Assembly (NCBI GenBank): GCA_018056275.1
Contig: JAGPFW010000001.1
Location: 1 to 30,722 of the forward strand
Length of the DNA: 30,722 bases
DNA from: Patescibacteria group bacterium
Lineage (GTDB): Bacteria > Patescibacteriota > WWE3 > UBA101185 > UBA10185
Direction of reading: 5' to 3'
Of this stretch, positions 3,001-12,000 are shown in pieces. Each line of letters begins with the position of its first letter. Position 1 is the stretch's first letter. A program made the position numbers.

Positions 3001-6000
3001 CAGTAGAAGCCATTAATATCGTACCTTCTGTAAATACCAAAACTTTAACCTTTGTTTTTTCAGGGCCAAAACCTATAATCTGGAAGCCATATTTTTCAAT
3101 ATCTTCCTTTGACCACATGCCCCAATTTTCAGCACCCTTAGTCTTTATAAGATATGTTACAGCTCTCTTAATTTCTCTACCCGTGTACTTATTATTTTTA
3201 TGGTTCCACTCTTTTAAGATTAATGTATCGCCAATTTCAATATCCCAATCTGCTAACCTTAATTCAAAGTTCTTTTTACCACTTGCTACTGCGTCAAAAT
3301 ATTCAGACCAGATTTTCTTTTCTATCGTTTTCATATGAGAATTATACCCTAGTTCGCATTCCTATTGGGTATGGCTTTTTCTGTTATGAAAGGGGCATTC
3401 TATGGCTGAGCATGTCGATCTAGAACCATTTTTACCCTCTAGGATATATATGAGACAAATGAGACAGTATAAAAAAGGATTGTCTCAGATACCTATAAAA
3501 CATTGATATAATAGTACGCATGGAAATTTATTATAGAAATAAAAAAGAATATGCAGTTTTTGCAATGCGTCGGAGTGGGCATCACGCTATTATGGAATGG
3601 GTTATGGCAAATACCCTTGGCAAACATTGTTTTTTAAATGACTGTGATCTTGTTGGAAATCCTTTTGAAACTTATAAGGGTGGAAAGCAAGAAGCGGAAG
3701 ACCCCAACAGCTCAAAAGACCCTATAGTAGATAAAGACTTATTAATATATAACTTTGAAGATATGTATTTTAGTAAATTCTCATATGACAACTTAGCCAT
3801 TAATCATGATTCTTGGTTAGTATCCACACAAGAATTTAATACATTACTAGTATTACGGGACCCATTTAACCTTTTTGCGAGTATGTTTAAATGGTTTAGA
3901 GGGGAACAAAGAAAAGAATGGAAACCCAGTATAGAAGAATTTAACGATACTCCAAATCTATGGATAGCTTATGCTAAAGAATATTTAGGACTAACAAATA
4001 TTCTAAAAGATAAGATAGTCATAAATTATAACGAATGGTTTGAAAGTGATGAAAATAAGAAAAATATCGCTATTCTATTAGGTTTACCCACCCATGATAA
4101 AGGGTATAAAAGAGTAGCTAAATATGGTGCAAATACATGGGGTGATTCTTTCGACAATATTAATTATGACAACAAAGCCCATGAGATGACTGTATTTGAA
4201 CGTTGGAAATCCTATAAAGATGATCAAGAGTACATAAGTATGTTAAATAATCCTGAGTTGCTAAATTTAGCCGAAAAGATCTATCCCAAACTAACAAAGG
4301 AGTTTCTAGAATATACTAGGAAATAGTAATGAAAATAGCGTTGATCTCAGCAAGAGCAGATCCATATATTCCCCCAGTTGATGTGCATGGAGGCACTGTT
4401 GTAATGCTCAATCTGATTAATTCTCTAAGTAGACTTGGACATCAGGTAGACATTTTTACAAGATTAGATAAGGATGCTGATACTGAATCAACTGAGCGGC
4501 GTTTTCGTGCTAAAAGACAAACGGAAGAAGGGGGTTCAGAAGTACAAATAGATAAAAATATACGAATATTTAGAATTCCTTATGAGTCTTCAGGTAAGGA
4601 AACTAATGTATGGGATAAACAACTTAATGAATCTGCTACGTTCCTAAATGCGATTGAAGATCATTTATTTAATGGTAACTACGATGTTATACACTATTTT
4701 CACTTAGCCTCAATCTCTGGTTGGTACAAAAAATACGATACTCCCCCATTTTTGAAGAAGAGCACCTTTAGTCCCTTATTTTTAGCTGCGGGTAGAAAAT
4801 TTGAAATTTTACCTGAAGAAAAGATTCTTGCGGAAAGAAAAGTATTAAACGATATACCTATAATAAGTAGTCAGTCCGTTGGAGAAGCAGAAAAGATAAT
4901 TAAGCATCACAATATCTCTAAAGATAAAATTTCAATAACACCATTAGGAGTAGATTTATCTATTTTTTATCCTAAGAAAGATTTTTATTCTGTGCTGCAA
5001 CGAGAGGTAATTTTAATCACAAGTCCTAACAATATTAAACCTCAGAAGAAACAGTTAGAAGTGGTTAAGGTTATAGGAGAACTAAAGAAAAAGGGAGTAC
5101 CCGTAAAAGGTATTTTTGTTGGAAATATTGGAGATCAATTTTATTTAAAAAGTATTCTAGATTTATTAGCTAATAATTCTCTAACATATACAAATTATGA
5201 GGGTCACTTTAGTACAGAATCATTTATATTCAATGAGTTTGATATTCTTTTTATTCCTAGTCAAAGAGAGAAAGTATTAGCAGATATTATACGTGCTTGT
5301 GATATTGCTATATTCCCGTCTACAGATGAGGGTTTTAGTTTACTAAATCTTAATTGTTTGGCCTGCGGAACTGTTCCAATATGCACAAATAGCAGTGAAT
5401 ACTCCTCCTATTTATTGCCTAACAAGAATTCTATTGCTGTTGATACTATACAACCTTGGGAAAAATTTGCAGAACAAGCATACAGGTTATGTAAAAATAA
5501 AGAAAAGATTGTGGAGTTATCACTAAATGCTTCTAATAGTGCTTCACAGTTTACATGGGATGAGTTTGTAGAGAATCAAGTTAAAGTTTATGAGGATTTA
5601 TGTCGCTAAGAGTTTTAATAGTATCTTCATTACAAGAAACTACTCCCCCATTAGGTTATGGTGGTACTGAACGATTCGTACACTATTTAGCAGAGTCTAT
5701 GGTTAGTAAAGGGTATGTTGTAACAGTAGTTTGTAAAAAAGGATCTATTGGTGGTAGTTATAAAACATTAGAAGTGGACACCGTTAATTTTAATCCCGAA
5801 TTTTTATTAAAGGAGCTAGAAAATAACAAGTATGATCTTATACATTTAAATACCAAAATACCGTCATTAATAGAGTTATTAGCTAAAATAAAGATTCCAG
5901 TTGTAATTACTTTCCATAACAACTTTAGAAAAAATAGTAGTTGGGTATCTGTAATAGAGGAAAACCACGATAACTTTTATTTTACCGTTATAAGTAATTC

Positions 6001-9000: not shown

Positions 9001-12000
9001 TCTATACCTATCCACGTGGTAAAGAATTTACTTCTATCAAATGAGATATTATTACTATCTAATACTTTTTCAAAATAGGTTTTAAAGTAATCGCTTACGA
9101 AAGTAAAATAAACATTTGATTCGTTTTGAGAGATTCTGAGTATATCTAACCATTGTGAAGGCTCACTATAGCTATGAATTGTGTATACAATTGGTAATTT
9201 TAACTTTACTAATTCTTTGTGTGTCTTTAAATTGTCAAAATGTAAATGGATCATATCTGGATGAATCTGTTCGATGGTAGTTAATATATCCTTCTCATAT
9301 GAATCAAAGTTAGTATAGATTGTTTTATAGTTTCCACCAGTAGAACCCTCTTTGGACATTACATATACCTCGGCATTTTTGTGTTTTGCCAATATGTTAT
9401 TGCTTAACATGTGAACGAATTTTTCTATACTGCCTGAGCCTGTGGGTGGGGTTAATCGATAGAGACTTGAAACTTCTAAAATTTTCACTTTAGTGATCTC
9501 CTAGTATGTATTATGTCTGTTAGATAATTTCCAAACCCAACAGCTCTTTTTCCATATGTCCTAAATATTTTGTCTATGTTTCTTAGTATCTCTATTACAG
9601 TATCCAACTCTTCTTTAGTAAGTGGAGAAAGATCCTCATGTGTAGTAAGCTTTTCTTGAATATTCAAGTATGGATTTTTAAGTTCAGATAAACTTGATCC
9701 ATTTTTAATCTTTAGATCTCTATATTGTTCCCATATTTCAGTAAGTAATTCGGATATTTCAATGTTGGTAACAATATCTTTAAGCAACAATTCCGATAAT
9801 CTAGTGTTTTCTTCTAGTTGAGAATGCATATTAGTTATTATACCGTGATTCTATTTATTGTTTGAAAGGAAAAAAGTTGGTTGTTCTGGATTTTCCATAT
9901 ACCTAATTATGGCTTCTTTAGCTTGGGGAGGAATAAAATTAGATTCAACAATTTTATTAATATCAAGCCATTCTACATAATACTGATCTTTTTCGTTCAT
10001 TCTTTCTCCTTCCGGACCTCCTAGTTTAAGTTCTGTTTCATCTGTTTCACAAACAAAATAAAAGGCAATTCTTGTTTCAGTATCAATTAAAAAGGCTAGT
10101 TTTCCAACTGTTACATTAATTCCAAATTCTTCTAATACTTCCCGTTTACAGGTTTCTTCAATAGTTTCACCCTTTTCCCATGTTCCGCCGGGCAATGTGT
10201 AAAAGTCTTCTCCGTTGAATATTTGATGCATTAGTAATACCTTGTTATCTTTTATAACTAGGGCACCTGCTCGAAAACCTTGTGATCTGTTTTGTAATAT
10301 GGTGTCATAATGCTTTGGCATATGTTCATTATACCAGGGTTTTTTGTTATTAAAACTTATATATAGGATATAATCAAAGCATATGAAATATACAGTTGTA
10401 ATTGGGGCATTGATAAATCCCGAATAAAATGAACGCATAGGTAAGAGTGGTAGAATTCGCATGTAAACAGTTTACATAAGGAGAAAAAATGGAGCTAAGA
10501 AAAAGATATACCCCAAGCTTCAAATTTAATGTGGCTTTGGAAGCCATAAAGACAGAAAATCTAGCAAAGGTAGCTAGGAATTATGGAATTAACTCAAACC
10601 CAAGTGGATGAAACAATTCATGGATACGGTTGAGACAACCCCTGATAAAGAAGTAAATAAACTAAGGAAAGAGAAGGCCAATTTAGAGCAACTTGTGGGG
10701 AAAAAGGAGACTGAGTTAAATTTACTAAAAAATTTTTCAGAGTTTTATCAATCCCTAGGTGGAGACTAGCACAAATTGCGAGGGAGGAGGCAAAGAGAGT
10801 TATTTTTACTGTATTGAGGAAATCCTCATACTCCTATCAGATAAAACAAATCTTCTTGTTAGACAGCTCTCTTACATTGATAAACCTCCTTTTTTCAGGA
10901 TTTGACAATTAGAATCTAGCGTATGGCGAGATTAAAAACTACTACTTCACTAGATGTGAAGCAAAAAGGGGTGTAACTAGCCCCTCCTCCCTTTCTGTTA
11001 TGGATCCCGAAAATCAGTTAAAGAAAACATTTGGTACGTTACAAATATCAAATGATTCTTATAATTGGTTTTTGAAATGGCGAAAAATTGTGCTATGACT
11101 TAGATAGTGTGTTTGATATCGTTAATAAAAAGAAATAGTAGATGATACTTTGGATAGGTTCGAACTGAACGAATTTGGTGTTTCTACGGTAAATGTGGGG
11201 TTTTATGAAGTCTTAATTCCTTCTTGGCTGGGGGGCAGGGATTCGAACCCCGATACATGGAGTCAAAGTCCATAGTCCTACCATTAGACGACCCCCCAAT
11301 ATCACCACAAACCGCATACACAAACATCATCTATAAACATTAAACATTGGAATTATACACAAAAAAGGCCATTAATCCATTTCATTAAGCCATCTCATTA
11401 ACGTATTTCAATAGCCACTGGCGCAATAAGTTTATCACCTATCTGGTTTATTTTACCCAAACTGTTTACCCTATTCTTAACCAATCCTTTCCTCAATTTT
11501 TTGGGCAATTACCCTTGAAAGTTTCCCAATCTCTTCGTTGGAAAAAACCGAATGAATAATCGCTATTTCCCCACTATCTATTTTTTTGGCCAAATCCCGC
11601 CTAAGATCCTCATTATAAAATGCGCCCTTATATTCTCCAAGAAGAGCCTCGGATGTAGATCCTCTTCCTCTTGGAACTATAAAAGCCCTCCTAAGGTTTT
11701 GTGCAACCTTTAGATTTACTACTTTCTCAAAAAGCCCATGTTGGTAAGCAAAATATTCAGGGCCTTTTTCTTGTTGCATTCTTTGAGCTAGGTCCAACAC
11801 TCTTTGCATAGACTGCCCAAAATCTTCCATCTGTTTGGCTGCCCTTTCATTCAAAAACCCAGTCTTTGCCTCTACCACTCCAACTATAGTTTGCGTCTCT
11901 ATATCAATTATAGCAATATCTGGGTTTCTTCCAGTTCCAAATATATTAAACCTCCTGGGATTATGAAAAAATGCTACTGCTTCGGCCTCAATTTCTTGCT

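Follow-up and report, generated by a model that had tools for sequence, protein, structure and literature searches.

We analysed a 30,722-nucleotide stretch of DNA (the window) from a Patescibacteria group bacterium (GenBank assembly GCA_018056275.1, contig JAGPFW010000001.1). The window is contig C21 of a genome of 676 kb in 70 contigs, with an estimated completeness of 93.5%, and its DNA recurs in activated-sludge and wastewater metagenomes. An earlier reading of the sequence (the original prediction) had singled out positions 3520 to 10321, where it saw a sulfotransferase and four family 4 glycosyltransferases (GT4s) and proposed a cytoplasmic tailoring pathway. This region, referred to here as the cassette, holds eight intact genes in two convergent operons:

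3520 to 4326, plus strand: ST, divergent sulfotransferase of the type using 3'-phosphoadenosine-5'-phosphosulfate (PAPS), 268 aa, accessory gene; putative, from fold and motifs
4329 to 5609, plus strand: GT4a, MshA/sucrose-phosphate-synthase-like GT-B enzyme, 426 aa, core gene; Pfam PF00534 and PF13439
5600 to 6676, plus strand: GT4b, 358 aa, core gene; Pfam PF00534 and PF13439
6657 to 7622, minus strand: GT4c, 321 aa from the ATG at 7622 (a TTG start at 7634 is possible), core gene; Pfam PF00534
7653 to 8354, minus strand: NDKL, protein with a predicted nucleoside diphosphate kinase (NDK) fold, 233 aa, core gene; AlphaFold (AF2) model with pLDDT 90.4, VIA-align and ESM Atlas
8406 to 9488, minus strand: GT4d, paralogue of GT4b, 360 aa, accessory gene; Pfam PF00534
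9485 to 9829, minus strand: small protein of 114 aa, overlapping GT4d by 4 nt; conserved gene without a family
9851 to 10321, minus strand: Nudix hydrolase (predicted), 156 aa from the ATG at 10321, core gene; PF00293, E 2e-13

In the plus arm, ST and GT4a are separated by a gap of 2 nt and GT4a overlaps GT4b by 10 nt. The minus arm runs from Nudix through the 114-aa open reading frame (ORF), GT4d and the 233-aa ORF to GT4c, and the two arms share 20 nt at their 3' ends (6657 to 6676). This ORF map agrees with the layout and spacings given originally. The same applies to the reported lack of transmembrane segments: in a hydrophobicity scan, none of the eight proteins had a 19-residue window sufficiently hydrophobic for a transmembrane helix, and all eight are predicted to be soluble.

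Recurrence and limits of the cassette

The gene set, its order and its convergent layout recurred in eleven instances, at identities down to 40%. Every instance had a core of NDKL followed by GT4c, converging on GT4a and GT4b, and Nudix was present in every instance whose contig reaches the Nudix position. A small protein of about 110 aa was found in most versions, and ST, GT4d, kinase-like proteins, GT2 and a short-chain dehydrogenase/reductase (SDR) varied as accessories. The 233-aa and 114-aa proteins, previously described as orphans, are thus both real conserved genes, the former being a core member with a predicted NDK fold. The link to Nudix, which had been called only positional, is more than that, because Nudix and GT4c form a single fusion protein of 466 to 470 aa in three versions (L015, L017, and L055).

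A complete ST-type set was present in L053. In L019, Nudix, GT4d, GT2, NDKL, and GT4c converged on GT4b and GT4a, with an SDR gene adjoining; L054 had GT2, NDKL, and GT4c converging on GT4b and GT4a next to the same SDR, on a contig that stops before the position of Nudix and GT4d. The SDRs adjoining the G011, L019, and L054 cassettes are mutual orthologues. The kinase-type versions (L015, L016, L041 and L042; L017, L018 and L043; and L055) had NDKL and then the Nudix-GT4c fusion, converging on GT4b, a protein of 287 to 291 aa, and GT4a. Compared with the window, the L015, L017, and L055 versions share orthologous GT4a, GT4b, GT4c, Nudix, and NDKL, the small protein and the convergent layout, but differ in the fusion, in the lack of GT4d, and in having one or two weakly APH-like proteins in place of ST. 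The 287- to 291-aa protein shows weak similarity to APH/RIO-like kinases, is orthologous among these three versions and has a paralogue in L015, and the ST and kinase-like genes hold comparable positions in the GT4a-GT4b arm. The "sulfated or phosphorylated" product that had been proposed as an alternative is mirrored by this replacement. Homology of the L015 kinase-like protein to ST was considered and rejected (hhalign probability 0.1). In G011, an APH-family phosphotransferase gene (7306 to 8220 of L002) lies two genes upstream of the ST-type cassette, and its product did not detectably resemble the kinase-like proteins found in other versions.

Nucleotide homology was limited to positions 3402 to 10410, with 82% identity to G054, a genome of the same genus, and 80% to G011, from another genus; the flanks of the window matched almost nothing in either genome. 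As a baseline, PyrG was 74% identical at the amino acid level to its counterpart in G055, a third genome, of the same genus, from which alone this baseline is drawn. Because the homology ends sharply, the flanks fail to align and PyrG reaches only this level, positions 3402 to 10410 form a discrete island, more highly conserved than the backbone of the genome. No empty insertion site was identifiable in relatives, the flanks being too diverged to align even within the genus, and there were no convincing att-like direct repeats at the island ends. The island is delimited by the following features:

3402 to 3519, plus strand: left island boundary and conserved leader/promoter region of the plus operon; homology to G054 and G011 starts at 3402-3403, and nothing aligns further upstream
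10322 to 10410, minus strand: right island boundary and conserved upstream region of the minus operon; homology to G054 and G011 ends at 10390-10410
10416 to 10387, minus strand: promoter-like site of the minus operon; consensus scan, 9/12 matches

Protein identities (%) between the window and the G054 and G011 copies were as follows:

ST: G054, 91 and 69 (two pieces); G011, 80
GT4a: G054, 81; G011, 84
GT4b: G054, 70; G011, 70
GT4c: G054, 80; G011, 79
NDKL: G054, 95; G011, 97 and 90 (two pieces)
GT4d: G054, 86; G011, 82
114-aa protein: G054, 87; G011, 83
Nudix: G054, 91; G011, 87

NDKL was the best conserved gene among these close copies. Its family has a sparse and patchy distribution, with members in 8 of the 89 species genomes available for the order (6 of 54 genera) and in 5 of 401 genomes sampled across the phylum, all five from one family; the ST family was found in 4 of the 89 genomes of the order. 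The cassette is a rare, horizontally exchanged accessory element of Saccharibacteria, with one copy also in WWE3. In L015, the kinase-type cassette directly adjoins a gene for a large serine recombinase (Resolvase/Recombinase/Zn_ribbon_recom; 6598 to 7902), and a recombinase fragment lies near the cassette of L054 (6773 to 7342), both of which fit mobility of the cassette.

Folds, motifs and relatives of the cassette proteins

All four glycosyltransferases scored above the Pfam cut-off of PF00534 (Glycos_transf_1), and GT4a and GT4b also passed that of PF13439 (Glyco_transf_4), which supports their original assignment to GT4. GT4b, GT4c, GT4d and all their orthologues retain an intact EX7E motif, and the GT4a orthologues carry a conserved E-x7-N/D variant. 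For GT4a, whose orthologues are 41 to 61% identical across all cassette versions, the best full-length PDB match was MshA (3c4q, E 2.5e-9), and sucrose-phosphate synthase (SPS)-like proteins and glycogen synthase were also matched. GT4b matched the glucosylsucrose synthase TeGSS best, over its full length (7fg9/8x3q, E 5e-15; the 7FG9 structure is described in PMC9909042), and BshA and TreT as well. The PDB matches of GT4c were the glucosylsucrose-synthase family, weakly, and tetrahydrobiopterin (pteridine) glucosyltransferase. Orthologues of GT4d were confined to the ST-type cassettes and L019, and those of G054 and G011 are 34 to 38% identical to GT4b.

Positions 7582 to 8331 of the window showed 91 to 99% nucleotide identity to G054 and G011, compared with about 75% for the flanking glycosyltransferase genes. 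A non-coding RNA was considered as the reason and rejected: Rfam searches were empty, both at the gathering threshold and at E<=1, and substitutions were biased to the third codon position ([5,6,29] by codon position against G054 and [7,5,34] against G011). Because of this bias, the 233-aa ORF (NDKL) is recognised as a strongly constrained protein-coding gene. Relatives of NDKL are very rare, eight further clusters being found among 5.8 billion proteins. Conserved motifs of the family include LKP, TVDPK, FFEVVYP, NNTG, YLKRVFRY, and DNLVHSPE.

No match to NDKL was found in Pfam at E 10, PF00334 included, and its family profile likewise found none among PDB sequences. In an exhaustive VIA-align search with the model, however, the ten best matches were all NDK-fold proteins (Z 9.5 to 6.2; next match, 4.9), and the first row of an ESM Atlas shape search was an NDK cluster with a TM score of 0.62 (normalised by hit). 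Foldseek gave weak matches, none of them significant. Residues N209, L210, V211, H212, S213, P214, and E215 are invariant in the family, and hhalign placed NLVHSPE..EL..LF of NDKL on NLIHASG..EI..LWF of a Saccharibacteria NDK, over only 20 columns and with E 0.057. The model has an NDK fold, which probably keeps the loop with the catalytic histidine and may have the corresponding activity. NDKL resembles NDK (PF00334) in its fold, probably in having NLVHSPE at the position of the catalytic N-x-x-H-G/A-S loop, and in an LKP strand similar to (I/M)KPD, whereas it differs in length (233 aa versus about 140 to 195 aa), in its large insertions, and in the lack of any match at the sequence level. 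A transglutaminase/papain-like reading, raised by ESM Atlas feature matches of about 0.8, was rejected, since no such fold occurred among the structural matches and NDK folds ranked top. Because the genome has a canonical ndk gene in another place, divided between two contig ends (C43:48-311 and C10:47-193), NDKL is an extra, specialised copy. Saccharibacteria NDKs (L023 to L026) are themselves about 195 aa long and carry an insertion that separates the halves of the Pfam model.

Several features set the expression of NDKL apart from that of its neighbours. Its G+C content at third codon positions (GC3) was 0.38 in the window, against 0.21 to 0.26 in neighbouring genes, and 0.36 to 0.44 across five divergent cassette versions, against 0.21 to 0.35. 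An AAGGAGA Shine-Dalgarno sequence, read from the alignment and a consensus match only, lies 7 nt before the ATG at 8354. Two further elements flank the gene:

8394 to 8422, minus strand: promoter-like site TTGACA-17-TAACAT upstream of NDKL; consensus scan, 10/12 matches, a consensus match only
7606 to 7641, minus strand: 15-bp hairpin and T run, terminator-like, directly after the NDKL stop and overlapping the start of GT4c; sequence scan

In three activated-sludge metatranscriptome assemblies from different studies, NDKL was the only part of the cassette assembled, save for two short low-depth pieces, the first within the Nudix gene and the second reaching into the 3' end of GT4d; contigs assembled in this way can document presence but not absence, and they reflect expression levels poorly. 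One RNA contig of 713 nt spans exactly 7646 to 8355, and RNA contigs in two of the metatranscriptomes stop at 7646, just before the hairpin. These observations are suggestive of NDKL being a separately and strongly expressed unit. Because its apparent transcript abundance fits simple recycling poorly, we keep open the idea that NDKL is a stoichiometric partner of the pathway or itself the target of modification. A prediction of a complex between GT4c and NDKL scored 0.00, which is evidence neither way. The synonymous sites of NDKL are also unusually conserved, third-position differences affecting about 12% of codons compared with 32 to 47% in the neighbouring glycosyltransferase genes, and in G054 the high-identity tract extends to about 8931, into GT4d; this conservation may stem from selection on codons under high expression, or from cassettes having recombined recently.

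ST had no match in Pfam or NCBIfam, even at E 10, so PF00685, PF13469, and PF03567 do not recognise it, and its family profile found none among PDB sequences; none of its 62 homologue clusters is annotated. Despite this, both fold and motifs support the earlier call of a sulfotransferase. With an AF2 model built on 36 homologues (pLDDT 87), the top 50 Foldseek matches in the PDB were exclusively PAP/PAPS sulfotransferases. In the exhaustive VIA-align search, the top 21 were sulfotransferases (Z 13.6 to 7.9), with 4gox as the best match (Z 13.6, 211/268 residues aligned) and P-loop kinases only below. Residues R18, S19, and H22 of RRSGHH and R113, D114, P115, and S121 of RDPFNLFAS were invariant across the 36 homologues, and G20 nearly so; we take these to be the 5'-phosphosulfate-binding (5'-PSB) and 3'-phosphate-binding (3'-PB) motifs, respectively, which fits a PAPS-type enzyme. 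ST thus shares its fold and the 5'-PSB-like and 3'-PB motifs with PAPS sulfotransferases (Sulfotransfer_1/_2/_3; the olefin-synthase ST domain 4GOX, TPST, NDST, and Stf0), but differs from them in escaping recognition by Pfam, in the RRSGHH form of its 5'-PSB, and in residing in a genome without PAPS synthesis.

One distant homologue of ST occurs with Sulfotransfer_1/3 genes, an ABC exporter and numerous genes of the GT2, GT4, and GT61 families, and another in a GT4/GT2/GT9 and methyltransferase cluster; of the others, one adjoins a glycosyltransferase gene and one stands alone. Because distant homologues sit among sulfotransferases and glycosyltransferases, glycan sulfation is the likely activity of ST. 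To judge from the versions compared, ST is an exchangeable accessory and not the defining part of the cassette. It was probably exchanged more recently than the rest, since it is 81.5% identical between the window and L053, compared with 53 to 70% for the remaining genes.

The frame conservation of Nudix with its relatives is lost upstream of 10324. Its Nudix box (GX5EX7REX2EEXG) is intact in the window, L053, L019, and L055, and in L015 and L017 the last G alone is changed. The 114-aa protein had no match in Pfam or NCBIfam searches and no usable one in the ESM Atlas, and homologues numbered only 8 among 1.8 billion representatives. Its identity was 65 to 87% within the ST-type cassettes, with counterparts at 30 to 32% in the kinase-type cassettes. 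A 3044-aa protein that matched it twelve times was dismissed as an uninformative coiled-coil giant.

Donors, possible products and rival explanations

The original prediction had noted that no PAPS-synthesis gene lies at the cluster, and this extended to the whole genome: APS kinase, ATP sulfurylase, and CysD (PF01583, PF01747, and PF01507) were all absent from the window genome. APS kinase (PF01583) was also absent from the other three genomes with the ST family, G054, G011 (97% complete), and G047, but clearly present in a few other genomes of the order. Because the carriers lack PAPS-synthesis genes, PAPS would have to come from outside the cell, or else ST would be idle.

For the sugar side, the situation was different. 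No wzx, wzy, ABC, priming or nucleoside diphosphate (NDP)-sugar genes were present within the island or among the adjoining genes of the window, as stated originally, but elsewhere the genome encodes NTP_transferase, five members of the epimerase/dehydratase family and a Bac_transf priming enzyme. On contig C34, NTP_transferase lies beside Wzy_C and Wzx; on C8, a GT4 gene precedes that for the priming enzyme; and on C29, two dehydratase genes precede two GT2 genes. The absence of export, polymerase and precursor genes thus holds for the cluster and not for the genome. Because NDP-sugar and Wzx/Wzy genes exist elsewhere, the host-derived donors suggested originally would not be required for the sugars, and a role in surface glycans in trans is possible; for PAPS, an external source was supported.

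Our preferred reading, which we hold tentatively and consider plausible rather than probable, is that the cassette directs the formation, in the cytoplasm, of an anionic oligoglycoside whose acceptor is not a polyprenol. The GT4s would act sequentially there, assembling a tri- or tetrasaccharide on a small acceptor that is most likely a metabolite with a phosphate or a linked nucleotide. Tailoring that differs between lineages, by GT4d and ST here and by kinase-like proteins, GT2 or SDR elsewhere, would make the glycoside anionic or modify it otherwise, with PAPS scavenged from the host or the environment. NDKL and Nudix would handle the nucleotide side, either removing and recycling the NDP released by the transferases or processing a nucleotide-linked intermediate. 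We favour a soluble glycoside because the closest relatives of known structure of the glycosyltransferases use small soluble acceptors, the components are predicted to be soluble, membrane genes are absent from every cassette version, the nucleotide-related core is invariant, and sulfate- and phosphate-adding enzymes appear to interchange.

The pathways of MshA (mycothiol) and of SPS followed by TeGSS offer the closest parallel to such a scheme, in that they too employ soluble retaining GT-B enzymes one after another on small acceptors, with neither polyprenol carriers nor export genes, and GT4a aligns over its full length with MshA and GT4b with TeGSS. The similarity is low (E 1e-9 to 1e-15), however, and the cassette has three to four glycosyltransferases where those pathways have one or two, lacks a phosphatase, deacetylase and ligase, and contains NDK-fold, Nudix and ST/kinase-like tailoring components that have no counterpart there. 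Assembly of the lipopolysaccharide (LPS) core likewise combines GT4 enzymes with sugar kinases of the protein-kinase fold (WaaG with WaaP/WaaY), which decorate a glycan at the cytoplasmic face, but its acceptor is lipid A-Kdo2 and it has no NDK or Nudix component; to our knowledge, Saccharibacteria do not make LPS.

Several points weigh against a soluble oligoglycoside. In NCBIfam, the GT4s match glycolipid synthases, LPS-core transferases and the archaeal N-glycan enzyme Agl16 equally weakly. Solubility is likewise a property of the GT4s in Wzx/Wzy pathways, one of which this genome encodes on other contigs. NDKL seems to behave as an abundant, separately transcribed product, which exceeds the apparent need for a recycling enzyme, and ST may be idle for want of an endogenous donor. 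The cassette may, moreover, be decaying in some hosts: in G054, a 10-nt insertion at window position 4068 splits ST, and in G011 (L014) a 1-nt deletion at 8086 splits NDKL and a 1-nt insertion at 5502 alters the C terminus of GT4a, frameshifts that were repeated in an independent assembly (L003).

The genes on other contigs raise the question of whether the cassette is instead a side-chain or serotype module, in which the GT4s extend an undecaprenyl-PP repeat unit handled in trans by Bac_transf, Wzx, and Wzy, ST decorates it, and exchange between strains varies the surface. The priming transferase and GT4 on C8, the NTP_transferase, Wzy_C, and Wzx on C34, and the epimerases/dehydratases with two GT2 genes on C29 would supply what such a module needs. 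The large GT2/GT4/GT61 clusters around distant ST homologues (one with an ABC exporter) and the one with GT9 and methyltransferases point the same way, and a patchy, mobile distribution fits surface variation. The colanic acid locus, too, includes a Nudix enzyme (the GDP-mannose hydrolase WcaH/Gmm). Yet none of the 11 cassette instances adjoins wzx, wzy, ABC or priming genes; neither of the two outcomes named originally as refuting, a gene set that does not recur elsewhere or homologous clusters lying routinely in wzx/wzy loci, was observed. Nor do we know of a surface-polysaccharide locus whose invariant core includes an NDK-fold protein or a Nudix-glycosyltransferase fusion, and the best full-length structural relatives of GT4a and GT4b use soluble acceptors, so we consider this module rather unlikely. 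A membrane glycolipid is, in our view, unlikely: here the GT4s would glycosylate diacylglycerol or another lipid stepwise at the inner face and ST or a kinase would add charge, comparable to sulfated oligoglycosyl lipids such as archaeal S-TGD and mycobacterial sulfolipid. GT4b and GT4d do show NCBIfam similarity to mono-/diglucosyl-diacylglycerol synthases, GlcN-PG synthase and the glycosyltransferases of the lipoteichoic acid anchor (E 1e-5 to 1e-8), but these matches are no better than those to soluble-acceptor enzymes and fall far below the family cut-offs. Such a pathway needs no clustered flippase or polymerase gene, the pairing of GT4 with kinase-fold enzymes in LPS-core assembly offers a precedent, and a diacylglycerol kinase gene lies in the window (25637 to 26092), though outside the island; the cassette versions themselves have no lipid-handling gene, and a lipid product would leave NDKL and Nudix without a role.

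The core also invites comparison with phage clusters (RB69, DLP3, and RL38J1) that arabinosylate or glucosylate DNA cytosine and combine MshA-, BshA-, SPS- and pteridine-glycosyltransferase-like GT-B enzymes with nucleotide kinases and a dCTP pyrophosphatase (PMC13326640). By analogy, the cassette, which likewise has a nucleotide kinase fold and a pyrophosphatase, could glycosylate and sulfate a nucleic-acid base, the nucleotide pool, or a protein, possibly NDKL itself, whose GC3, promoter-like site, strong Shine-Dalgarno sequence, hairpin and RNA contigs would be expected of a stoichiometric component. Unlike the phage clusters, however, it lies in a cellular genome without phage genes or a dNMP kinase, and no base hydroxylase or hydroxymethylase (thymidylate-synthase-like, TET/JBP) was found in any cassette protein or listed neighbour. 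Against PHROGs, the cassette proteins matched generic glycosyltransferase and Nudix families only, and NDKL has no Ser/Thr-rich repeat. PADLOC found no known defence system, giving a single generic Nudix match to the candidate PDC-S07 and none for the seven other proteins, and so lends no support to the anti-phage defence suggested earlier. Modification of a macromolecule therefore strikes us as quite improbable. In a further reading, the cassette would not be a conventional glycan pathway but might build a glycosylated and sulfated or phosphorylated nucleotide-linked metabolite, or decorate its own abundant NDKL, as a symbiosis factor whose sulfation depends on PAPS from the host. We think this unlikely; if true, epibiotic Saccharibacteria would have a symbiosis factor of a new kind.

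No description of the cassette was found in the literature searched, nor of its combination of three to four soluble GT4s, a fusible Nudix, a new NDK-fold family and interchangeable sulfate- or phosphate-adding enzymes. Saccharibacteria are ultra-small obligate epibionts with minimal metabolism, and because a 7-kb accessory cassette is nonetheless kept and repeatedly exchanged among them, it likely matters for life on the host. ST, in genomes unable to make PAPS, would be a concrete case of dependence on an activated cofactor made by the host, and NDKL, being rare, strongly conserved and apparently transcribed on its own, is a good structural and biochemical target. The product would join the very few metabolites or surface molecules known to be specific to the candidate phyla radiation.

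Neighbouring genes in the window

The genes next to the island are unrelated to it. Upstream are those for DUF3850/ASCH, DUF5680, and DUF5674 proteins, and downstream come a tRNA gene, a 273-aa ORF and a gene for an M16 peptidase. The gene directly upstream (2555 to 3334), on the opposite strand and outside the conserved block, encodes an ASCH/DUF3850 domain fused to a C-terminal region that is weakly LNS2/HAD-like. Eight tRNA genes lie on the minus strand (11228 to 11298, 13636 to 13709, 16670 to 16847, and 19784 to 20952), one of them about 800 nt past the right end of the island. With pyrG (14862 to 16607) as the query, no CTP synthase other than that of G055 was found among G055, G054, G011, and G047; pyrimidine metabolism may differ among close Saccharibacteria. 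Further along, 11 to 16 kb from the island, are genes for a MacB/FtsX-type ABC transporter (21447 to 25598; two permeases, an ATPase and an HlyD-like adaptor) and for a PMT-family GT-C glycosyltransferase (26169 to 27728), both of which lie outside the conserved block and are unlinked to the island in relatives.

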